From the NCBI GenBank assembly GCA_040756135.1, contig JBFLZS010000002.1:15949-79948 (forward strand): 64,000 nucleotides of DNA, read 5' to 3'. Made by a program: the position numbers and the translations under genes. The DNA is from Nitrospirota bacterium. Its GTDB lineage: Bacteria; Nitrospirota; Thermodesulfovibrionia; Thermodesulfovibrionales; SM23-35. Shown here piece after piece: positions 2,595 to 13,155 of this stretch. Below the pieces are notes generated by a model. It did no database searches. It was not told the DNA's origin and worked only from the letters and a program-made list of their open reading frames with translations. Numbering within the stretch: the stretch's first letter is position 1; every line of letters begins with the position of its first letter.

Positions 2595-4982
2595 TTATTT
2601 TTTTTCTTTTGCCCTCTGGGCGGCCTCTGTTAGTGTCCACATAAGGTGATCTATTGCAATCTTGTTGTTAAAAGGCGCAACCTTTACAGAAAGGTCTTTT
2701 ATGCCAATAAGGTTTCTATTCGATATCTCAAGTTCTTTAAAGATGACAAAACCATCCTGTAGATAAAGACTCATTATCCCTTTGTCAAAACTTCTGTCCC
2801 CCAGGTATGTTTTTAAAGAAGGGCCTCCAACCTTCTGTAAAAATTCTTTACTTATCTTTGTTTTTTCATCTTTAGTACTATATGTCCAGAAATCTGCCTT
2901 GCCAATAAGTTTGGAAATACCAACTCCGGTTCCCTTTATATTTGCAACACCGTCTACTTTACCCGAAATATATCCTTTAATAGGCTCAATTCCTTCGCAC
3001 AGTTTTGCGAGACTTAGTCCCTTCAAAAGAATACCGACCCTGTATTTAAGCCCATCGGAAATGTTGATGATGCCAGAGCCATTGAGTCTTCCTCCGAATA
3101 TGTTAGCACTAAAATGATTTATATTCAAAACACGGCCTTTCTGATTAAGCCAGATAACTATATTTTCTAAAAGCTCGAAACCATAACTGAAAGAACCGAT
3201 TGTTATCCTGCTGAATCCGCTATCTGAAGTCTTTTGCGAATAATATTTAGTCATGTTATCGAATTCAGAATGTTCGAAAGAAGGTATTTTAATTATTTCC
3301 TGCTTATAATCGGATTCAGCGTATGCAACAGGGATTATGCCGTTAACCGGTCCTGCAAAATACTCATTGTTTTCTCCGGAAAGACTAAAGTTTTTTAACC
3401 TTAGCTCCCCATTTACACTCAATTTACTGTTACTATAATCAATTGAAAAATCTGAGGATAAATAGCCATCAAGGCCTGCATAAAGGAGGCTGTCAGGGAA
3501 TATATTCCAGAAGGAATCTCTGATGTCAGTCGCTTTAACTTCCGGGAGCTTTGCGTTTAATTTTATAGACCTATCTTTATTCATAAATCCTTTCACTGTT
3601 CCTGAAATAATTGCGGATATGCTGCCGGCACCTGCGTCCGACTTAAGCTCAAGGACATCCCCTGCAAATTTAATTTCTGAATCTAAAAAAATATTCTTTA
3701 GGATATTCCTTTTACTTTTTATCTCCAAAACAGAAATACCTTTTGCTTTTAACAATGCCTTTCCATCCAGTGAGTTTAAAGAATTCAAAGTGCCATTAAA
3801 AGCAGCACTCTTAATATTTCCTGATATGCTGTAAGGGATTTCTGAAATTTTTGATGATAGAACATATAAATGACTTGCATCTATATTCTGTGCCGTTAGA
3901 CTGATTTTTACGGGAAAAGGCCCTTCCGAGGTTTTACCATCTAAATTGAGTTTTATTATGCCGCCAAAAACATCAGCCTGAGGTATCTCCGCATAAAAAT
4001 CTTTTCCGTTGAATTTCCCTTTTCCTGCTATTGATGCAGGACTGATGCCATGGAATTGAATCTTTCCTGTTGAAAAAGCAAAGTCGCCTGATAAAGATCC
4101 TATACCTTTATTTAAATCCATAAGGGTATTTATCGATAGATTGATCTCAACGGGCTTATCGAGAAGATATTTCTCAGTCTTCAGGATTTTTAAAACAGCT
4201 TCTGCCCTGACAGATATCTCCCCGCTGGATGGAAGTTTTATATTTACATTTGCTTTTTCAATCCCGGCGTTTATTTTGTGTTTGTTTAAAAGATATTTAA
4301 ATGCAGGAAAAGGGTAATCATCTGATGAAACAGAGATGTTCAGTTTTTTTGGTTCATCCTTCAGATATGCCCATCCATTAATCTTTATTTTGTTTTCACC
4401 TGCATATGAAGTATGACCATTAATTAAAGTTTTTGTCCCGGGCTCGGAAGAAAGGTTTTTCAGATGCAGATTGATATTATCATTTCCGTATCTTTTGTCT
4501 TTATTAAAATCAAAGATACCCGAGTCAATATCAAATTCATCTATCTGGTATTTGATTGTTGGTTTTCTTTTAAAAAGTTGCAAAAGTTTATCAGAAACAT
4601 TCAATCTGCCGTTTCTATCTTTTATCAAGATAAACTCGGGTGAAAAAACGGTTATGTTTCTAAAATAAAATCTTCCTTTGAAAAAATCACTGAACTTCAT
4701 TTTAAGGTAAAGCCTTTTTATACGAAGAAGCTGTCCTGAATCAAACCCTTGAGGGTTCATGATACAAATATCGTAAATGTTTATTCCTGCTGATGGACTG
4801 AATGACAAATCCCCGATATCAACCTTCTGTCCGATCATCAAAGTTGACTCAGCAGAGATCTTTGTAATCAATGTTTTTTTAAAATCAAGGTAACCAAAAT
4901 ATGCGAGAGAAATAAAAAAAAGAATAAAGATTATCAGTATTACAGAGGTTATTTTTAAGATTCTTTTGATATTTATTGGCAT
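2595..4982 (-). CDS. AsmA-like / YdbH-family intermembrane lipid-transport protein
   Basis: 795-aa ORF with an N-terminal TM anchor. The rest is long, beta-rich and repetitive. The C-terminal region is of the type seen in YdbH. Synteny with the YnbE/YdbL-like gene supports the call. Confidence 0.5.
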   Translation of the reverse strand: MPINIKRILKITSVILIIFILFFISLAYFGYLDFKKTLITKISAESTLMIGQKVDIGDLSFSPSAGINIYDICIMNPQGFDSGQLLRIKRLYLKMKFSDFFKGRFYFRNITVFSPEFILIKDRNGRLNVSDKLLQLFKRKPTIKYQIDEFDIDSGIFDFNKDKRYGNDNINLHLKNLSSEPGTKTLINGHTSYAGENKIKINGWAYLKDEPKKLNISVSSDDYPFPAFKYLLNKHKINAGIEKANVNIKLPSSGEISVRAEAVLKILKTEKYLLDKPVEINLSINTLMDLNKGIGSLSGDFAFSTGKIQFHGISPASIAGKGKFNGKDFYAEIPQADVFGGIIKLNLDGKTSEGPFPVKISLTAQNIDASHLYVLSSKISEIPYSISGNIKSAAFNGTLNSLNSLDGKALLKAKGISVLEIKSKRNILKNIFLDSEIKFAGDVLELKSDAGAGSISAIISGTVKGFMNKDRSIKLNAKLPEVKATDIRDSFWNIFPDSLLYAGLDGYLSSDFSIDYSNSKLSVNGELRLKNFSLSGENNEYFAGPVNGIIPVAYAESDYKQEIIKIPSFEHSEFDNMTKYYSQKTSDSGFSRITIGSFSYGFELLENIVIWLNQKGRVLNINHFSANIFGGRLNGSGIINISDGLKYRVGILLKGLSLAKLCEGIEPIKGYISGKVDGVANIKGTGVGISKLIGKADFWTYSTKDEKTKISKEFLQKVGGPSLKTYLGDRSFDKGIMSLYLQDGFVIFKELEISNRNLIGIKDLSVKVAPFNNKIAIDHLMWTLTEAAQRAKEKK

Positions 4983-5046: not shown

Positions 5047-5376
5047 TTATTTTATATCATCAATACCAATAATATTTGCTTCAAGGAGATTTCCTAACAA
5101 CGTAAAACCACCGCACGGTAGTGATTTTTCTTTTTGCTGAATAAAATCACAATCACTTTTGTAAAAAGGACAGGAAATGCACATATTTTGTCTGAGTTTT
5201 TCTTCGGTCACAGGATTGAGCTTCTTCTCAGACGTATCAAAAGTGATTTTCTTTCCCCTTTCTATTAATGTTTCTACTACAAGAAAGCCCATACAGGCAA
5301 GTTCATCATTTTTTGCTGGTTTGTAGAAAGGGCAGAAATTTAGGCACAGCCTTTCATCTAAATTTATCTCATTCAT
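5047..5376 (-). CDS. Cys-rich hypothetical protein with internal duplication
   Basis: 109-aa ORF with two copies of a C-x2-3-CPFYK..C(M/G)GF..L(I/L)E module: CLNFCPFYKPAKNDELACMGF and CISCPFYKSDCDF..PCGGF. It is divergent from the rSAM/SPASM gene. Confidence 0.5.
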   Translation of the reverse strand: MNEINLDERLCLNFCPFYKPAKNDELACMGFLVVETLIERGKKITFDTSEKKLNPVTEEKLRQNMCISCPFYKSDCDFIQQKEKSLPCGGFTLLGNLLEANIIGIDDIK

Positions 5377-5514
5377 AAAAATACTCCCAACCTGTTATTC
5401 CGAACCCCTTCTCTTATTCTGAAGAGGCGTAATCCCTACAGAATCTTCAGGTAAAGATCAGAAAGGGTTCTCGTTATAATGATAACAAAAATCAGGTGTG
5501 TTGTATAATTAAAA

Positions 5515-6717
5515 ATGAGATATTTTCTTGATAGAGACGCTGTCCTTAAATTGATTGAGAAGCCTTCTGTTTATCATATTGCAAAGGATGACCTTTATGA
5601 ACTTGACAGCGATTCCTTTGAATTTCTTAATAATTGTGCATCTGAGAGCGGGTGTAACGTTAAAGAAAATGATTTTATTGATTATTGTCTGAAAGAAGGA
5701 ATATTAACTGTGGATAAGGTCTCGGTAAAACGCCCCCCTCTGATAAAGTCTCCTCATCCCTCCCTTAGGTATCTTGAGCTGCAAATAACGAACAAGTGCA
5801 ATCTGAAATGTAAACACTGTTATATTAATCCCCCCTCACCCCCCTTTAGTAAAGGGGGGAAGGGGGGATTTGAAAAGTTATCCTCCAAACAATCCTTTAG
5901 CGAGCTTTCAATAAACCAGATAAGAGATATTTTGAAAGAATTCGAGGAAATGCAGGGATTAAGAGTTCTTATCACAGGGGGTGAGCCGCTAATTCACAAA
6001 GGATTTAAAGAGATAAATAAAATGCTTCCCGAATTCTTTGTAAGGAAGGTCTTGTTTACAAACGGATTGTTATTAAATAAAAAGGTGCTTAAAAAACTTA
6101 ATGTTAACGAGATCCAGATTAGCGTAGACGGGCTTGAAAATGCACATGACTCACTGAGAGGCAAGGGAACCTTTAAGAGGGCAATAGAGGCTGTTAAACT
6201 TGCTATTGACTCTAATTTTGAGGTCTCTATCTCAACAATGGTTCATTCTAAAAATCTTGGGGAATTTGACGAGATGGAAAGATTATTTAAGGACATGGGA
6301 ATAAAGAACTGGACTGTTGACATCCCATGTATAACCGGGAGGCTACAAGAGAATCCTGAATTTCAGATAAGCCCTGAACAGGGAGGAAAATATCTCAGGT
6401 ATGGTTATGGTAACGGGCTTCATGCAGGCGCATCTGGTTATGCATGCGGGTTATATCTAATGGCTGTGATGGCTGATGGCAGGGTTTCAAAATGTACTTT
6501 TTATTCAGATAGCTCTGTTGGTAGGATTGAAGACGGACTTAGAGAATGCTGGCAGAGGATAAAACCTATAAGGCTTGACGAATTAAAATGTGATTGTAAA
6601 TATATCGAATCATGTAGAGGAGGCTGCAGATACAGGGCACAATTGCTTGGTGACCCTTTTGGCAAAGATCTTTACAAATGCAATTTTTATGGTATAATTA
6701 AAAATACGAATTATTGA
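5515..6717 (+). CDS. Radical SAM/SPASM-domain peptide-maturase-like enzyme with RRE/PqqD-like N-terminal domain
   Basis: It has the CNLKCKHCY (CxxxCxxC) motif, a C-terminal Cys-rich SPASM region (CDCKYIESCRGGCRYRA), and about 85 aa N-terminal with a ..DDLYELDSDSFEFLNNC pattern. It carries an in-frame repeat insertion at 5827-5871. Confidence 0.85.
   Translation: MRYFLDRDAVLKLIEKPSVYHIAKDDLYELDSDSFEFLNNCASESGCNVKENDFIDYCLKEGILTVDKVSVKRPPLIKSPHPSLRYLELQITNKCNLKCKHCYINPPSPPFSKGGKGGFEKLSSKQSFSELSINQIRDILKEFEEMQGLRVLITGGEPLIHKGFKEINKMLPEFFVRKVLFTNGLLLNKKVLKKLNVNEIQISVDGLENAHDSLRGKGTFKRAIEAVKLAIDSNFEVSISTMVHSKNLGEFDEMERLFKDMGIKNWTVDIPCITGRLQENPEFQISPEQGGKYLRYGYGNGLHAGASGYACGLYLMAVMADGRVSKCTFYSDSSVGRIEDGLRECWQRIKPIRLDELKCDCKYIESCRGGCRYRAQLLGDPFGKDLYKCNFYGIIKNTNY
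5827..5871. repeat. G/C palindromic 'KGG' repeat inserted in frame in the rSAM CDS
   Basis: The sequence aatcccccctcacccccctttagtaaaggggggaaggggggatt is a nested hairpin. It encodes NPPSPPFSKGGKGGF immediately after the CxxxCxxC motif. Confidence 0.8.
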
Positions 6718-6757
6718 GCACGAAGCTCAGATTCCTCTATGAAAGGGGGTAATAATA

Positions 6758-6820
6758 ATGATAATCAGAAAGGTGTCAAAGAGGCCCTCACTTACCTGTA
6801 AATGTAAAAGCTCCTGCTAA
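6758..6820 (+). CDS. Candidate 20-aa Cys-rich peptide (possible RiPP precursor), speculative
   Basis: A GGGGG Shine-Dalgarno at 6744-6749 lies 8 nt upstream of the ATG. The peptide is MIIRKVSKRPSLTCKCKSSC*. It starts 40 nt downstream of the rSAM/SPASM stop on the same strand. It is too short for the ORF track. Confidence 0.25.
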   Translation: MIIRKVSKRPSLTCKCKSSC

Positions 6821-6982
6821 TTAATATTCAACTATTTTGCATTCACAATAAGGGTTCTAAAAGCAATGTGAAGGCAAAGCAATCACCTATAAAGGGATTG
6901 CTTTGCCTTCAACTAATGTTACAAGTGGTGAAGATTCTTCAATAACCTTAGGTAATTCATGCCTGAATAACAGAAGACATTA

Positions 6983-7168
6983 TTACTCCAAGGTTATTGC
7001 CTGAGTCGGACATAACTCAATAGCTTCCTGAACGTTGCAGGTATCAAGTTTGTCAGGCCCAATAACATGTGCTTTTTCATCGTCTCCTACCTGGAATACC
7101 TCGGGGCAGGTCTCCTGACATGTGGCACATCCTTCACACAACTCTTCATTAACTACTGGCTTTGGCAT
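6983..7168 (-). CDS. Small single-cluster [4Fe-4S]/[3Fe-4S] ferredoxin
   Basis: MPKPVVNEELCEGCATCQETCPEVF...ELCPTQAI. A strong RBS (AAGGAGGTGAGGATT) precedes the ATG at 7168. The 86-aa track ORF is an upstream extension through a repeat. Confidence 0.75.
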   Translation of the reverse strand: MPKPVVNEELCEGCATCQETCPEVFQVGDDEKAHVIGPDKLDTCNVQEAIELCPTQAITLE

Positions 7169-7300
7169 AATCCTCACCTCCTTACAATTAATTTTATGAA
7201 ATATCTTCCCCAAATTCCCTTTAAAGGGAGGGGAGGAAGGCATAATTCAAAATGCGTTATATTATATAGAAAATCGCTGAAATTTGCTATTACTATTTTA

Positions 7301-7801
7301 TTATGCCCATGGAGTTCCTCCGTCAACAATGCTATGTTCTTCCCACATAAACCAGCTTCCGGTATCTGAAAGGAAAAAATATGTATTTGCAAAGATATCA
7401 TAATGCTGTTGCTCTTCCTTGATAAGTCGCTTAAATAGGGAAAGCTCCTTTTCCGTTTGTGCCTCTGATTCAGCCTTTTTATAAAATTCGACCCCTTCTT
7501 TTTCCATCTGCATTGCTATCTTAAATGCATCAAGCTCGTCTGAGGTTGCTTCAACCCTCTTCATCATATCATCCTTCATTGATTCAAAGATTGTCCTGAT
7601 ATTTTTCATCGGACTAAGTTCCTCAATCTGTATGTTAACATCTTTGAATATTTGAGAGAGCATCTCTAAGTGCCTTTTTTCATCTTCTGTTATACTCAGG
7701 AACATCTTTTTGCCAACAGGATGTTTTGTTTTCTCAGCTGCCTCTCTATAGAAATTTATTGCATCTGTTTCCATTCTGATGGCTAATTCTATAGCGTTCA
7801 T
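7301..7801 (-). CDS. Ferritin-like / rubrerythrin-family diiron protein (no rubredoxin domain)
   Basis: 166-aa ORF. It has two ExxH-type helices (EDEKRHLEM, EEQQHYDIF) and the A..ME.DAINFY pattern. Confidence 0.7.
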   Translation of the reverse strand: MNAIELAIRMETDAINFYREAAEKTKHPVGKKMFLSITEDEKRHLEMLSQIFKDVNIQIEELSPMKNIRTIFESMKDDMMKRVEATSDELDAFKIAMQMEKEGVEFYKKAESEAQTEKELSLFKRLIKEEQQHYDIFANTYFFLSDTGSWFMWEEHSIVDGGTPWA

Positions 7802-7941: not shown

Positions 7942-8925
7942 ATGATGAATTATCCGTCTTATATACAGCTTTATCCTACCTTAAGATGTAATCAAGGGTG
8001 TAGCTTTTGTTTTAACCAGGGTATATCGAGCTCATTTTTAAACAAGGATATGAATCTTAAGGATACGTATTTGCTGAGAGATATGCTTGTAGAAAAGGGC
8101 ATTTCAGAGATAGATATACTTGGCGGAGAACCCTTGCTTGTCCCGTGGATGAAAGATTTTGTAATACATGCAACAGAAGATGGTATCTCTTTAAATATAA
8201 GCACAAATGGCAGTCTACCTGAAGTTGTAGGTCAGTTTGCAGAAGGCCACACAAATTCTATAAATTTCGGGTTTTCCTTTGAGGGCTTCTCAGAAACTCA
8301 TAATGCCTTGACTAAATCAAAAAATTTTTCTAAAGCTATCACAGGACTTAAGATGATGATTGCAGCAGAGAAAAATCCTATTGTGAAAAGTACATTGATG
8401 AAAGAGAATATTGACGAAATTTACGATCTCATTTCTTATTTCGCAGGACTTGGCGTAAAAAGGTATTACATTTTGCATGAGGATATTATAGGGAGGCAAA
8501 AAAACTCGACCTGTTTTTCTTTCCCGGAATTCTGGAAATTTTATTCAAAAATAAAGACAGAAATGGCAGAAGTGTTAGATGTAGGTTTTGTAGCGGCATC
8601 AGGCTTTTACTCATCTGGACTTCAGCTTCAAGGAAGATGTGATGCAGGTATAAAAAAGATTGCGGTATTTCCTGATGGTTCTGCCTTTCCATGCAACCTT
8701 TTTGCAGGCTTTGAGGAATTCCGTCTTGGCAATATACTTGAGGATGGAATGGAAAAGATATGGGGAAATCCATTATTGGAAAAATTCAGAAAATATGATG
8801 GCAACAATAGATGTAAAAGGGATGACTGTAACCATTATCTTAACTGTAGAGGTGGATGCCCGGCACATAGCTATTACTTTTATGGCACCCTTGATAGGGT
8901 GGATCCTCGATGTGGGATTAAATAA
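7942..8925 (+). CDS. Radical SAM/SPASM-domain protein
   Basis: It has CNQGCSFCF (CxxxCxxC) near the N-terminus and a C-terminal Cys cluster (CKRDDCNHYLNCRGGCPAHS). Confidence 0.85.
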   Translation: MMNYPSYIQLYPTLRCNQGCSFCFNQGISSSFLNKDMNLKDTYLLRDMLVEKGISEIDILGGEPLLVPWMKDFVIHATEDGISLNISTNGSLPEVVGQFAEGHTNSINFGFSFEGFSETHNALTKSKNFSKAITGLKMMIAAEKNPIVKSTLMKENIDEIYDLISYFAGLGVKRYYILHEDIIGRQKNSTCFSFPEFWKFYSKIKTEMAEVLDVGFVAASGFYSSGLQLQGRCDAGIKKIAVFPDGSAFPCNLFAGFEEFRLGNILEDGMEKIWGNPLLEKFRKYDGNNRCKRDDCNHYLNCRGGCPAHSYYFYGTLDRVDPRCGIK

Positions 8926-9121: not shown

Positions 9122-9784
9122 ATGGATAAATCAATAAAACAGCAGGTAAAGGATCTTCTGGAAAAGAGAGATTATGATCGCCTGCTCGATTTGTGTGATA
9201 AAGACAGGCACTTCTGGAAAGAACTTCGTTTTTGCCTTTACGATATCAATGAAAGTATACGCTGGCCGGCCATTGAAGCTGTGGCCAAGTTGATGCAACG
9301 CTGGTGGAAGTCAGGGCAAAAAGACAGGGTGCGAGAGTATATTAGAAATCTTTTCTGGTCAATAACCGACGAATCTGGCGGGATTGGCTGGAGTTCTCCC
9401 CAGACTATTGCCGAAATTATCGCGAAAATTCCCGAATTGCTTGATCCCTATAGAAGTGTGATGATTGCCCATGCCTTCGAGGAATTACCCTTAATAAGGT
9501 CTGGACTCTGGGGGATTGGGAGATTGGGCAAAGAAATAACCGATGCAGTGGATTTTTTCCAAGGCAAGGTATTGGCAGCCTTCCAGAGTGAAGATGCTGA
9601 AACCCTTGGCGTTGCAGCATGGGCAATGGGTGAGGTAGGATTTAGACCTGCCCTTCCTCTTCTAAAAAAATTGTTAGAACGTAATGAACATGTGCGGATT
9701 TATATTGAGGGCGTCTTCTGTGAGAAACCTTTAGGACAGTGGGTAAAGGAAGCTATTAATAAAATAAATCTAAACCATAAATAA
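9122..9784 (+). CDS. HEAT-repeat protein (recalls the 'DVU0298 family')
   Basis: 220-aa all-helical repeat sequence (..[12 protein letters not shown].., ..GLWGIGRLG.., ..AAWAMGEVG..). The family name is from memory, not a search. Confidence 0.45.
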
Positions 9785-9797
9785 GGAGGAAAATAGG

Positions 9798-10382
9798 ATG
9801 AAAGAAACAATCGAGAATCTAACAAAGGCATTTATTGGTGAGAGTCAGGCAAGAAACCGGTACACTTTTTATTCGAAGATTGCCCAGAAAGAAGGTTTTG
9901 AGCAGATTGCAGAGGTCTTTCTTATAACGGCAGATAATGAAAGGGAACATGCAAAGTGGCTGTTCAGGTTAATCAATGATTTGAAGAGCAAAGGCAGTGA
10001 AAATCTTGATGAAATAACTGTTGAAGCATTAGCGCCGACAACGCTCGGGGATACTGCTGAAAATCTAAGGGCAGCGATTGCAGGGGAGCACTATGAAAAT
10101 ACCAAGATGTATCCGGAATTTGCAGATGTTGCTGAAAATGAGGGGTTCCCGGAGATTGCCAGACGATTGAGGGCGATTGCCAAAGCAGAAGAACATCATG
10201 AAGAAAGATACAAGAAATTGTTAAAGGAGGTCGAAGTCAATACCGTATTCAGGAAAAGCAGAAAGATCCATTGGGTATGCAGAAAATGCGGATACATACA
10301 TGAAGATGAGGAACCACCAAAGAAATGTCCCTCGTGCGACCACGAATCAAACTATTTTGAGATTAAATGTGAAGAATTTTGA
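9798..10382 (+). CDS. rbr: Rubrerythrin
   Basis: It has an N-terminal diiron four-helix bundle ([28 protein letters not shown]) and a C-terminal rubredoxin-like CRKCG...CPSC. Confidence 0.9.
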
Positions 10383-11085: not shown

Positions 11086-11580
11086 ATGTCAAAAACTGAA
11101 AAGAATCTTCAGGATGCATTTTCAGGCGAATCACAGGCAAATAGAAGGTACATTGCCTTTGCAAAAAAGGCTGAGTCAGAAGGATATAAACAGGTTGCAA
11201 AACTCTTCAGGGCCGCTGCAGAGGCTGAAACCGTTCATGCATTAAATCACTTGAAAGAGCTTGGTGGAATTAAGAGCACAAAAGAAAACCTCGAAGCAGC
11301 AATTAACGGAGAGACATACGAGTTCATGAAAATGTATCCTCAGATGATTGAAGATGCTAAGGCTGAAGGTAAAAAGGCTGCTTTAAAAAGTTTTTCCTTT
11401 GCTAATGAGGTAGAAAAGATTCACGCAGGCCTTTATAAGAAGGCCCTTGAAAATTTAGGTAAAAATCCCGAGGTAGATTATTATGTATGCCAGGTCTGTG
11501 GAAATACAGTAGAAGGAGAGCCACCAGATAAATGCCCCATATGTGGCGCTCTGAAAAAGATGTTCAAAAAGATTGGGTAA
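11086..11580 (+). CDS. rbr: Rubrerythrin (short form)
   Basis: It has ESQANRRY.., ETVHALNH.., GETYEF.. and a C-terminal CQVCG..CPICG. The RBS is AAGGAGGGAAATATG. Confidence 0.9.
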   Translation: MSKTEKNLQDAFSGESQANRRYIAFAKKAESEGYKQVAKLFRAAAEAETVHALNHLKELGGIKSTKENLEAAINGETYEFMKMYPQMIEDAKAEGKKAALKSFSFANEVEKIHAGLYKKALENLGKNPEVDYYVCQVCGNTVEGEPPDKCPICGALKKMFKKIG

Positions 11581-11581
11581 T

Positions 11582-12154
11582 ATGAAAATCATTGCGTTTC
11601 TTGGAAGCCCAAGAAAGGATGGGAACACAGAACTTCTTCTTAAGGAAACAATTAAATGCATTGAGGAGTCAGGATTAAACGTTCTCCTTTTTAATCTGAA
11701 TCTCATGAACATCTCGCCTTGCCAGAATTGCGGAGGTTGTGATGATACAGGTATATGTATAAATGAAGATGATATGACTCAAATATATGATGCAATAAGG
11801 ACTGCTGACAGGGTTATTCTTGCATCACCAATCTTTTTCTTTGGCATCAGTGCTCAGGCAAAAATAATGATAGACAGATGCCAGTGCTTCTGGTGTGAGA
11901 AATATTTATTAAAAAAACCGATATTAGAAGGCCATTACGGGAGAAAAGGGCTTTTATTAGTAGTTGGTGGACAAAAAAAGGAAATCGGGATTCAATGTGC
12001 AGAGGCAACAGCAAAGGCATTCTTCAGAACAATCAGCATCCCTGAACATAAGACATTGGGCTATCTGGGAATAGACGCAAAAGGTACAATTCTACAACAC
12101 CCAACAGCACTCAGAGAGGCATATGAGGCAGGGAAGGAATTGGTTAAGATATAA
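11582..12154 (+). CDS. Iron-sulfur flavoprotein / NADPH-dependent FMN reductase family
   Basis: It has MKIIAFLGSPRKDGNTE (flavodoxin-like) plus a compact Cys cluster, CQNCGGCDDTGIC. I prefer the ATG at 11582 over the TTG at 11573. Confidence 0.75.
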   Translation: MKIIAFLGSPRKDGNTELLLKETIKCIEESGLNVLLFNLNLMNISPCQNCGGCDDTGICINEDDMTQIYDAIRTADRVILASPIFFFGISAQAKIMIDRCQCFWCEKYLLKKPILEGHYGRKGLLLVVGGQKKEIGIQCAEATAKAFFRTISIPEHKTLGYLGIDAKGTILQHPTALREAYEAGKELVKI

Positions 12155-12159
12155 ATCGG

Positions 12160-13155
12160 TCAGACCCTCTTCCATCTTCTATGGATCCAGAGCCATTCAG
12201 AGGGATGGGCACGTATGTATTCTTCAATGAAATGTGAGAATTTTTTTGTATCCGCCAGTACAGCACTTTCTATATCGCCATTTTTTGATAATTCTACCTC
12301 TGGATAAATTTTTATCCTGTGGCCTCCATCAGTCCTGTGTATGAATACAGGCAGGACTGCGGCACCTGTCTTTCTTGCTATAAGGGCAGGCATTTTTGTT
12401 GTCCATGCACCCCTGCCTAAAAAATCTATCACATAGCCTTCATCAGGGATAACAGACTGGTCTATCAATATGCCTACAGAGCCATTATTCTTAAGTATTT
12501 GAATTATGGGTTTTAATGCCTTTTGCTTGTAAATTACTCTGTTACCATATTTCTGTCTTACATTTTCAATAAATTTATTAACATAAGGATTATTAATCGG
12601 TCTTGCAACAATAGCAGCATCTCCAAGCTTTACAGATGTAGCGATTGCCATTAACTCCCAGTTTCCACAGTGGCCTGTTAAGAATAAAATTCCTTTACCT
12701 TTAGATTTGGCCTGATCGAAGTTTTCAATGCCCTCGATATCAACGGAACTTATTATTTTTTCACCATACCCGTAATAGATTTTTATGATCTCTACAAGAG
12801 ACCTGCCAAGATTCTTAAAGGTTTCCCTTGCAATACCCTCCGCTGAATAATTAATCCCCCCATGCCCCCCTTTAAAATCCCCCTCTAATCCCCCTTTAAT
12901 AAAGGGGGACTGAGGGGGATTATCCCTTTTCCAAAGGGGGGTGTGGGGGGATTCAGGGGGATTTGACTCCTGACTCTTGAGTAATGACTCTTTGATATTC
13001 TCAATAGCAATCCTTCTCCTGCTTCCCCATAGATAAAAAACCAAAAGGCCGAGTAACTCCCCGGCCTTCATTGACCACTTAAATGGCAGGATTGCTAACG
13101 GTATGGACAGAATTATAAATAGACAAACCTCAAACAGCCATACCGCTTTTTTCAT
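12160..13155 (-). CDS. Lysophospholipid / lipid A (LpxL/HtrB-like) acyltransferase
   Basis: It has an N-terminal TM helix and the HX4(D/E) motif LTGHCGNWELM. The family C-terminus is HPSEWLWIHRRWK. It contains a 110-nt triple repeat insertion. Confidence 0.8.
   Translation of the reverse strand: MKKAVWLFEVCLFIILSIPLAILPFKWSMKAGELLGLLVFYLWGSRRRIAIENIKESLLKSQESNPPESPHTPLWKRDNPPQSPFIKGGLEGDFKGGHGGINYSAEGIARETFKNLGRSLVEIIKIYYGYGEKIISSVDIEGIENFDQAKSKGKGILFLTGHCGNWELMAIATSVKLGDAAIVARPINNPYVNKFIENVRQKYGNRVIYKQKALKPIIQILKNNGSVGILIDQSVIPDEGYVIDFLGRGAWTTKMPALIARKTGAAVLPVFIHRTDGGHRIKIYPEVELSKNGDIESAVLADTKKFSHFIEEYIRAHPSEWLWIHRRWKRV
12853..12963. repeat. Three tandem G/C palindromic 'KGG' units inside the acyltransferase CDS
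   Basis: It spans aatcccccccatgcccccctttaaaatccccctctaatccccctttaataaagggggactgagggggatt...ccaaaggggggtgtggggggattcagggggatt. It is translated in frame as NPPESPHTPLWKRDNPPQSPFIKGGLEGDFKGGHGGI. Confidence 0.8.

Follow-up and report, generated by a model that had tools for sequence, protein, structure and literature searches.

Radical S-adenosylmethionine (SAM)/SPASM enzymes paired with a peptide have repeatedly given new chemistry and new cofactors, including pyrroloquinoline quinone (PQQ), mycofactocin, sactionine links and thiooxazoles. The sactipeptide and ranthipeptide (SCIFF) maturases SkfB, AlbA, CteB and PapB combine a radical SAM domain with C-terminal SPASM/Twitch clusters, begin with an N-terminal peptide-binding domain of about 85–110 residues and are encoded beside a short cysteine-containing precursor; thioether formation, in which the cysteine sulfur is joined to the alpha, beta or gamma carbon of an acceptor residue, is the default of SPASM enzymes acting on cysteine peptides. 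The mycofactocin (MftA/B/C) and PQQ (PqqA/D/E) systems use a very short precursor (20–30 residues) with an invariant C-terminal or core motif, a radical SAM/SPASM enzyme and a small accessory protein, encoded separately or as a fusion, and they have no exporter; their broad, conserved distribution suggests a physiological role. MftC acts on the C-terminal residue of its peptide. In anaerobes, the radical SAM/SPASM enzyme SbtM oxidises the beta-carbon of a peptide cysteine to form a metal-competent thiooxazole heterocycle (PMC9204691), and the bufferins of aerobes are copper-buffering, cysteine-derived ribosomally synthesized and post-translationally modified peptides (RiPPs) made by O2-dependent MNIO enzymes (PMC11626156). 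Here we describe a three-gene cassette that resembles such enzyme–peptide pairs. It lies in a 64,000-nt stretch of a Nitrospirota genome (GenBank assembly GCA_040756135.1, contig JBFLZS010000002.1, positions 15,949 to 79,948), which we refer to as the window.

The cassette contains a radical SAM/SPASM enzyme, a 20-residue peptide and a cysteine-rich protein, and a three-part peptide-maturation system is in our judgement its probable explanation. The first-pass annotation of this DNA had proposed peptide maturation here, an idea that the present analysis supports overall. The enzyme gene (5515–6717, plus strand) encodes a 400-residue putative maturase, recognised through Pfam and its orthologues, in which about 85 residues precede the core and the cluster motif CNLKCKHC occupies residues 95–102. 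The peptide gene opens with an ATG at 6758, 40 nt past the enzyme stop codon and 8 nt after a GGGGG Shine-Dalgarno sequence (6745–6749, plus strand). It encodes MIIRKVSKRPSLTCKCKSSC followed by a stop codon (6758–6820, plus strand), with a basic N-terminal half and the C-terminal tail C-K-C-x-x-S-C. All of these features had been described before and were confirmed. The divergent gene for the 109-residue cysteine-rich protein (5047–5376, minus strand, from the open reading frame (ORF) list) is also present, and its product does consist of two modules; the first module begins with C-x3-C (CLNFCPFYK) and not with the CxxC originally reported for both, whereas the second reads CISCPFYK.

We scanned contigs with the enzyme sequence alone and translated the flanks of 30 enzyme-seeded loci, among which L001–L029 contain full-length or nearly full-length orthologues with 30–73% identity. 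A 20-codon ORF adjoined the enzyme gene in 21 of the 30, and its product fits the consensus M-x-[IV]-[KR]-[KR]-[VILM]-x-[KR]-x5-C-K-C-x-x-S-C-stop, always with exactly 20 codons. These loci come from Nitrospirota, Desulfobacterota, Dehalococcoidia and Archaeoglobi. The bacterial examples include L017 and L019 ("delta proteobacterium"/Desulfobacterota), L023 (Desulfarculaceae) and L020 (Dehalococcoidia), and the archaeal ones are L024 (Methanobacteriota), L027 and L029 (Geoglobus) and L028 (Ca. Mnemosynella), the last two genera both being placed in the class Archaeoglobi. The strict pattern C[KR]C[KR]..C-stop had no match in 51 control loci around unrelated radical SAM genes. The first-pass annotation had named conservation beside orthologous enzyme genes as the test of the mini-ORF, and cysteine spacing, length and position are all conserved in four bacterial phyla and in Archaeoglobi.

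The pattern of variation within the ORF is that of a coding sequence. Residues C14, K15, C16, S19 and C20 are invariant among the enzyme-seeded orthologues, and their codons differ synonymously only (TGT/TGC for cysteine, AAA/AAG for lysine, and TCC, TCA, TCT or AGC for Ser19), which is the behaviour that had been sought. Codon 21 is TAA, TAG or TGA in different loci. Translation would start at ATG or GTG, and in 20 of 20 orthologous peptide genes a GGAGG, GGGGG or (in archaea) GGTGA sequence lies 6–10 nt upstream. The ratio of nonsynonymous to synonymous differences (pN/pS) is approximately 0.15 in the peptide core and 0.5 in the leader half, with pS saturated at about 0.8–1.0; we calculated it from the enzyme-seeded set only, as the search pattern fixes those codons in the peptide-seeded set described below and makes the calculation circular, and L028 is mis-registered by 3 nt in the set used, which slightly inflates pN. 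Nucleotide identity between loci is 65% within the peptide ORF, compared to 36% and 27% in its two flanks. An Rfam scan around the peptide gene gave nothing near gathering scores, and the peptide matched no Pfam or NCBIfam model at E≤10. Because variation at the invariant residues is synonymous, three stop codons alternate at one fixed position, the Shine-Dalgarno sequence is conserved and the flanks are not, we conclude from these comparisons that 6758–6820 is a genuine translated gene and neither an RNA element nor a chance ORF. It escapes gene callers: the gap after the radical SAM gene that appears "empty" in L210 and L211 contains the peptide gene. Two contigs carry two near-identical copies of the peptide gene each (L019, 1731–1820 and 3174–3263; L160, 236–298 and 2160–2222). 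A likeness of the peptide N-terminus to ribosomal protein bL36 was considered and dropped, as the cysteine spacing differs and there is no Pfam match.

We also searched in the reverse direction, matching metagenome contigs to a degenerate 63-nt pattern built from the peptide without the enzyme. By our own arithmetic, which assumes equal base frequencies, this pattern is expected to occur by chance once in about 1.4e14 nt. There were at least 120 matching contigs (L081–L200), and all 120 listed encode recognisable members of the peptide family. A radical SAM orthologue and/or its cysteine module was adjacent in 84 of these 120 listed matches; 16 had too little sequence on the relevant side, 13 were CKCK-type genes standing alone with room for an enzyme, and seven belonged to a distinct CKCH subfamily. 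With the 16 contig-end and seven CKCH loci set aside, the cassette lies beside the peptide in 84 of 97 informative CKCK-type loci among the matches listed. The tie between a short precursor gene and a modifying enzyme that typifies RiPP loci was found, in all, in 21 of 30 enzyme-seeded and 84 of 120 listed peptide-seeded loci. The three genes occur in three orders: divergent module and enzyme genes with the peptide gene downstream of the enzyme gene (order A; Nitrospirota, including the window), module–enzyme–peptide on one strand with a gap of about 14 nt (order B; Desulfobacterota), and peptide–module–enzyme (order C; Desulfarculaceae-like lineages and Archaeoglobi). ORF clustering across the three orders found only the peptide, module and radical SAM genes in common and no shared peptidase, ABC exporter or tailoring enzyme; a leader peptidase or dedicated exporter, which is typical of RiPP loci without being obligatory, is thus not conserved across the arrangements. 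Genes for 2-oxoacid:ferredoxin oxidoreductase, cysteine desulfurase and a DUF523 protein were considered as partners and set aside, as they recur in few loci and look like lineage synteny.

The enzyme has one domain recognised by Pfam, Radical_SAM (PF04055; residues 90–257, 80.2 bits against a cutoff of 29.5). The codons for C95, C99 and C102 (5797–5820, plus strand) specify the CxxxCxxC ligands of the SAM-cleaving [4Fe-4S] cluster and are invariant in 28 of 28 orthologues. A SPASM-type auxiliary-cluster region follows at 6445–6681 (plus strand), with C311-x15-C327 (including G322-x4-C), C359-x-C361-x5-C367-x3-C371 and C389, each invariant in 27 or 28 of the 28 orthologues, which are bacterial and archaeal. 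This arrangement departs from the seven-cysteine SPASM motif Cx9-15Gx4C...Cx2Cx5Cx3C...C at a single point, a CxC in place of Cx2C. About 70 NCBIfam radical SAM models are listed for the protein, none of which comes near its cutoff (the highest score, for WgkB, is 101 bits where 650 are required), and the 1717 enzyme relatives found in protein databases carry generic names only. By sequence the best match in the PDB is the RiPP maturase SkfB (E=2e-16), and a Foldseek search with the AlphaFold2 model of the enzyme recovered radical SAM cores only, SkfB first; the model itself is poor (mean predicted local distance difference test (pLDDT) score 54, and below 50 for residues 14–28). The nearest solved or curated relatives are peptide maturases (SkfB, WgkB, ScmE, AlbA and MftC), and the enzyme looks like a peptide maturase as well.

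The acidic N-terminal domain of the enzyme (residues 1–85; 5515–5769, plus strand) is specific to this family and is a candidate RiPP recognition element (RRE)-like peptide-binding element. It is retained from Nitrospirota to Archaeoglobi with D25 and E61 invariant, and a phmmer search of 1.84e9 representative proteins found it in this enzyme family solely (54 matches, of which the proteins of about 500 residues are module fusions). The mean net charge of the domain is -6.6 over 66 residues, compared to +4.1 for the first 13 residues of the peptide. Such complementarity would fit an electrostatic docking of the leader.

The cysteine-rich protein of the window contains C11-x3-C15-x12-C28 in its first module and C66-x2-C69-x6-C76-x11-C88 in its second, each followed by a G-F-x-L-L helix, and 23 close homologues keep all of these cysteines together with K19, P20, F71 and a PCGG motif. 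In Desulfobacterota, Dehalococcoidia and Archaeoglobi, a single-module protein of 54–60 residues is encoded directly upstream of the enzyme, often overlapping it, with the invariant residues C-x2-C-x-F-x-K-x6-8-[LY]-E-C. The window protein aligns with this single-module family with an hhalign probability of 97.7% (E=2e-12) and is a tandem duplication of the 54-residue Cys3 module. Neither Pfam nor NCBIfam contains a family that matches the module protein, and the single-module family comprises at least 855 clusters at 90% identity, all "hypothetical" and none with a Pfam domain. The first-pass annotation had included the CPFYK protein in the system, and this assignment holds: the module adjoins the radical SAM orthologue in 16 of 30 enzyme-seeded loci, it was found in none of the listed peptide-seeded loci that lack a radical SAM gene, and at least five sequences join it to the enzyme's N-terminus. 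In these, one ORF encodes both a double module and the enzyme (L110, 7089–8612; L115, 4989–6482; L183, 10099–11619; and the proteins P0284 and P0305, of 497 and 506 residues). Since it occurs both as a separate protein and as an N-terminal extension of the enzyme, the module has the behaviour of an accessory or recognition domain and not of a substrate, so far as its sequence context indicates. It has no similarity to PqqD (hhalign probability 0.3%). Its AlphaFold model, of low confidence (pLDDT 61), shows a helix, a cysteine loop and a helix per module, which would be compatible with a metal or Fe-S site; shallow alignments account for the low confidence of this model and that of the enzyme.

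From these observations we propose how the cassette might work. The peptide would be made by the ribosome as a 20-residue chain, whose basic stretch of 13 N-terminal residues would form the recognition half and whose C-K-C-x-x-S-C tail of seven residues, which ends in a free C-terminus, would be modified. The enzyme would be a radical SAM/SPASM protein with three [4Fe-4S] sites, its acidic N-terminal domain docking the basic half of the peptide and its 5'-deoxyadenosyl radical chemistry being applied to the cysteine-rich tail. The detachable Cys3/Cys4 module, free here and fused elsewhere, might serve as a metal or Fe-S accessory or as a second docking domain. By analogy with the characterized maturases, we infer that the peptide is the substrate of the enzyme, and the modification most likely yields a cysteine-derived thioether or else, as with SbtM, cysteine oxidation or heterocyclisation. 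The cysteine tail always ends the peptide, which suggests that the terminus matters. Since no protease or exporter is conserved, the product would be a small peptide that binds thiols or metals and is retained by the cell, and, given its broad, near-invariant distribution, it is probably physiological and intracellular rather than an antibiotic of the usual sactipeptide or ranthipeptide kind.

Several findings weigh against this proposal. The status of the peptide as a substrate is drawn from adjacency and analogy. The SPASM models PF13186 and TIGR04085 miss the enzyme at E≤0.01, and both match the neighbouring radical SAM protein encoded at 7942–8925. The likeness of the N-terminus to PqqD-type RREs, which the first-pass annotation had put forward, found weak support. 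Such elements have a winged-helix fold of three strands and three helices and take up the leader as an additional strand. When 25 N-terminal domains were compared with Pfam (HMMER, E≤10), none matched PqqD, HMMER searches of these domains against the PDB matched no RRE protein, and the AlphaFold model (mean pLDDT 54) is weak over residues 14–28 of this domain. An hhalign comparison with eight genuine PqqD sequences from plasmids gave a collinear alignment that is not significant (P=0.013, probability 3%). It covers the strand region and pairs LYELD-xxFxFL with KLN-xxAxxIL and FIDYCLKEGIL with EFLQIACQQKWI, so that the strands, helix 1 and helix 3 correspond and helix 2 is deleted. The domain is possibly an RRE that lacks helix 2.

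Linkage of the genes also has exceptions. At seven orthologue loci, both the peptide and the module are absent up to 6 kb from the enzyme gene, and L001, L004 and L209 have the module with no peptide, L001 looking like a clean deletion relative to the window. Thirteen CKCK-type genes among the matches listed stand alone in unrelated contexts, such as beside hypA/hypB in L147 and a glutaredoxin gene in L157, and such peptides may have an enzyme-independent life. Both kinds of exception are compatible with partner genes that are unlinked and lie elsewhere in the genome.

The CKCH subfamily extends these exceptions. Its seven members (L101, L109, L119, L126, L128, L176 and L189) have the same length and N-terminus and the tail C-K-C-H-[QKN]-S-C. 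Among the matches listed, none of the seven genes is near a radical SAM gene and all seven lie among copper-handling genes. In L109, L119 and L126 a CopA-type Cu(I) P1B-ATPase (best PDB match 3RFU, E=1e-52 and 6e-35) has its C-terminus encoded just upstream of the gene; in L101, L128 and L189 a gene for a secreted Met-rich protein directly follows; and in L128 and L176 a YHS-domain protein (Pfam YHS, 3e-9) is encoded alongside. These contexts hint at a thiol- or metal-binding role for the peptide family. It is plausible, by analogy, that the family binds soft metals and that the radical SAM cassette is an oxygen-independent tuning of that function. The copper link is limited to a subfamily that is not linked to the enzyme, and it too counts against the proposal above.

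The same observations feed the strongest alternative, that the peptide is itself a small metal- or thiol-binding protein, akin to a metallothionein or metallochaperone, which is co-transcribed with the radical SAM enzyme or serves it while the true substrate is another molecule. The peptide may, for instance, act as a cluster or metal donor or as a regulatory subunit. Stand-alone genes of both kinds (13 CKCK and seven CKCH among the matches listed), the consistent placement of CKCH genes in copper-homeostasis gene sets with no radical SAM gene nearby, and the enzyme loci that lack the peptide would all be expected, and the CxCxxxC spacing presumably resembles metallothionein-type thiolate motifs. 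This explanation is, however, difficult to reconcile with the tight linkage to the enzyme across phyla and through three gene orders (the 84 of 97 informative listed loci), with a dedicated acidic enzyme domain complementary to the basic leader, with the closest characterized relatives of the enzyme, which all modify peptides, and with the finding that no alternative substrate gene is conserved. We consider it unlikely.

A second alternative makes the Cys-module protein at 5047–5376, rather than the mini-peptide, the substrate of the enzyme, in the way that QhpD acts on QhpC or anSME on sulfatases. In the loci examined, the module always accompanies the enzyme gene (none of the listed peptide loci without a radical SAM gene contains it), and its conserved cysteine, phenylalanine and lysine residues could be modification sites. 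The module is nevertheless fused to the enzyme N-terminus in at least five sequences, as is typical of accessory and recognition domains, and five loci with both enzyme and peptide (L006, L010, L011, L016 and L019) have no module within 5 kb. Its helix-loop-helix Cys3 architecture, in a model of low confidence, looks like a metal site. We regard this assignment of the substrate as very unlikely.

Equally hard to sustain is a conventional bacteriocin cluster of the sactipeptide or ranthipeptide kind, with a secreted antimicrobial as its product. A radical SAM/SPASM gene beside a short cysteine-rich peptide gene is the classic layout of such clusters, and SkfB is the best match of the enzyme in both structure and sequence. 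Yet none of the three arrangements has a conserved gene for a leader peptidase, an ABC exporter or immunity, the curated sactipeptide and ranthipeptide maturase models all score below cutoff, and the precursor is of one type, always 20 residues long in bacteria and archaea alike and almost invariant in its core, unlike the fast-evolving bacteriocins. A bacteriocin cluster is accordingly a highly improbable reading. The notion that the mini-ORF arose by chance, or that its conservation reflects an RNA element or terminator, could appeal to a length of 63 nt, to its being uncalled by gene finders and to a nearby hairpin, but it is already effectively refuted by wobble-only changes at the invariant residues that include a TCN-to-AGC serine switch, by three stop codons and ATG/GTG starts with Shine-Dalgarno sequences, by retention of the peptide sequence whether it is upstream, downstream, convergent or stand-alone, by the lack of an Rfam match and by at least 120 matches where far fewer than one was expected.

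A bolder reading can be entertained, which we offer tentatively as a possible but doubtful one. The cassette would make an ancient, oxygen-independent thiol- or metal-binding molecule of strict anaerobes from the invariant C-K-C-x-x-S-C, a radical SAM counterpart of the bufferin and methanobactin metallophores or a cofactor like PQQ or mycofactocin. The new Cys3 domain would be a new kind of maturase accessory, and the CKCH sisters, unmodified or differently handled, would serve copper-efflux operons.

The remaining features of the cassette concern its expression and an inserted repeat. The 138-nt intergenic region between the divergent accessory and enzyme genes (5377–5514, from sequence reading) is the presumed bidirectional promoter region, and a sigma-70-like match lies within it at 5482–5509 (plus strand), ahead of the radical SAM gene, as a match to the consensus only. 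A second, near-consensus sigma-70-like match (TTTACA, 16 nt, TATAAT, with an upstream TG; 6671–6698, plus strand) lies inside the 3' end of the radical SAM gene, 60 nt ahead of the peptide start codon. Judged by consensus alone, it could give the peptide separate, stronger transcription. A strong hairpin at 6869–6911 (minimum free energy -35.7 kcal/mol, z = -4.7), between the convergent peptide and ferredoxin genes, is probably a bidirectional terminator, and many orthologous loci have a GC-rich hairpin followed by a T-run after their peptide gene. Just past the cluster motif of the enzyme, an in-frame 45-bp G/C-rich palindromic repeat (5827–5871, plus strand) encodes NPPSPPFSKGGKGGF. The repeat family, AATCCCCCC..CCCCCCTTTnnTAAAGGGGGG..GGGGGGATT, is also present at 12878, 12924, 22389, 23117, 37259 and 50093, with variants at 1885 and 55384. 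Because inserts of 0–60 residues, drawn from two or more repeat types, occupy this codon in orthologues, this site after CxxxCxxC is an insertion hot spot adjacent to the catalytic loop.

Genes for a small 4Fe-4S ferredoxin (6983–7243, minus strand) and a ferritin-like/rubrerythrin-domain protein (7301–7801, minus strand) converge on the peptide gene. They keep this position in the order A loci of Nitrospirota and not in other phyla, and may represent a lineage-specific electron donor or mere synteny. The second radical SAM/SPASM protein (7942–8925, plus strand) has 327 residues, no N-terminal extension and a canonical SPASM match. Beside it is a DVU0298-family HEAT-repeat protein (9122–9784, plus strand; NCBIfam 132 bits against a cutoff of 75), on which a full-text literature search found nothing relevant. 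The second radical SAM gene is near the cassette in several Nitrospirota loci, with no DVU0298 match reported in them. Rubrerythrins are encoded at 9798–10382 and 11086–11580, and the ORF at 11573–12154 we take, from sequence reading, to be a flavodoxin-like NADPH-dependent FMN reductase. The segment 9798–12154 and the ferritin-like gene at 7301–7801 look like an oxidative-stress island around the cassette. In three other loci, a NifS/IscS-type cysteine desulfurase, recognised by sequence motifs only, is encoded less than about 3 kb from the enzyme (L017, "delta proteobacterium", 3429–4610; L026, Thermodesulfovibrio, 2925–4058; L028, Archaeoglobi, 2965–4122). With three loci only, this proximity may be coincidence.

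The comparison with described systems brings out both the family resemblance and the novelty of the cassette. Measured against the sactipeptide and ranthipeptide maturases, the enzyme falls far short of the curated models (SkfB, 65.5 against a cutoff of 300; AlbA, 59 against 850; StsB, 58 against 625), and the SCIFF and PapB maturase models are not among its top NCBIfam matches. Unlike those maturases, it has CxC in place of Cx2C and an N-terminal domain that is not detectably an RRE. The system differs from theirs as well in its 20-residue precursor with a cysteine at the extreme C-terminus, its additional Cys-module partner, the lack of a protease or exporter, and its conservation across phyla and in Archaeoglobi. 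The mycofactocin and PQQ systems resemble the cassette in precursor length, in the free or fused accessory and in breadth of distribution. In sequence they are distant: the enzyme scores 69.8 bits with the MftC model TIGR03962 (cutoff 265) and is below the cutoff of the PqqE model as well, the peptide motif is CKCxxSC, ending in ...SC, where the mycofactocin and PQQ precursors have GVY or E..Y, and the accessory is a Cys3 module unrelated to PqqD or MftB (the 0.3% hhalign probability given above). Tailoring genes of the MftD/E or PqqB/C type are not conserved here, unlike in those pathways.

Two further systems bear on the chemistry and on the possible function. SbtM, from Geobacter and Desulfobacteria, shows that non-thioether cysteine chemistry is open to the radical SAM/SPASM class. 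The SbtM model TIGR04082 is not among the matches of the enzyme above cutoff, and SbtA is longer, contains selenocysteine and has as its modification site a Gly-Cys motif not present in the peptide described here. In the bufferins and methanobactins, which are widespread and physiological, the modified cysteines of ribosomal peptides chelate copper (PMC11626156). Those peptides are made by O2-dependent multinuclear iron enzymes from precursors with Sec signals that are exported to the periplasm; the cassette instead pairs an O2-sensitive radical SAM enzyme with a peptide that has no signal sequence (its N-terminus is basic, not hydrophobic), in strict anaerobe hosts. No MNIO (DUF692) enzyme with a partner was found in the window neighbourhood or in related loci. 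The CopA, Met-rich and YHS neighbours of the sister peptides are a lead on how strict anaerobes might buffer soft metals with no O2-dependent enzymes.

The peptide, the module and the enzyme clade have no model in Pfam or NCBIfam (June-2026 release), and a full-text literature search on the motif and on radical SAM RiPPs of Nitrospirota and Thermodesulfovibrio found nothing relevant. Current gene callers and family databases overlook a system that is abundant in anoxic sediments and groundwater, with at least 120 peptide contigs, at least 855 module clusters and 1717 enzyme-matching proteins. It is a compact cassette of three genes whose precursor, at 20 residues, is among the shortest known, and whose invariant peptide core is shared by lineages from Nitrospirota and Desulfobacterota through to Archaeoglobi. 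Its Cys3 domain is RRE-like in genetic behaviour, being free or fused, yet unrelated to PqqD. On these comparisons, the cassette represents a putative new family of radical SAM-modified ribosomal peptides with a new accessory domain, one that would act like a sactipeptide/ranthipeptide or a mycofactocin/PQQ enzyme–peptide pair.

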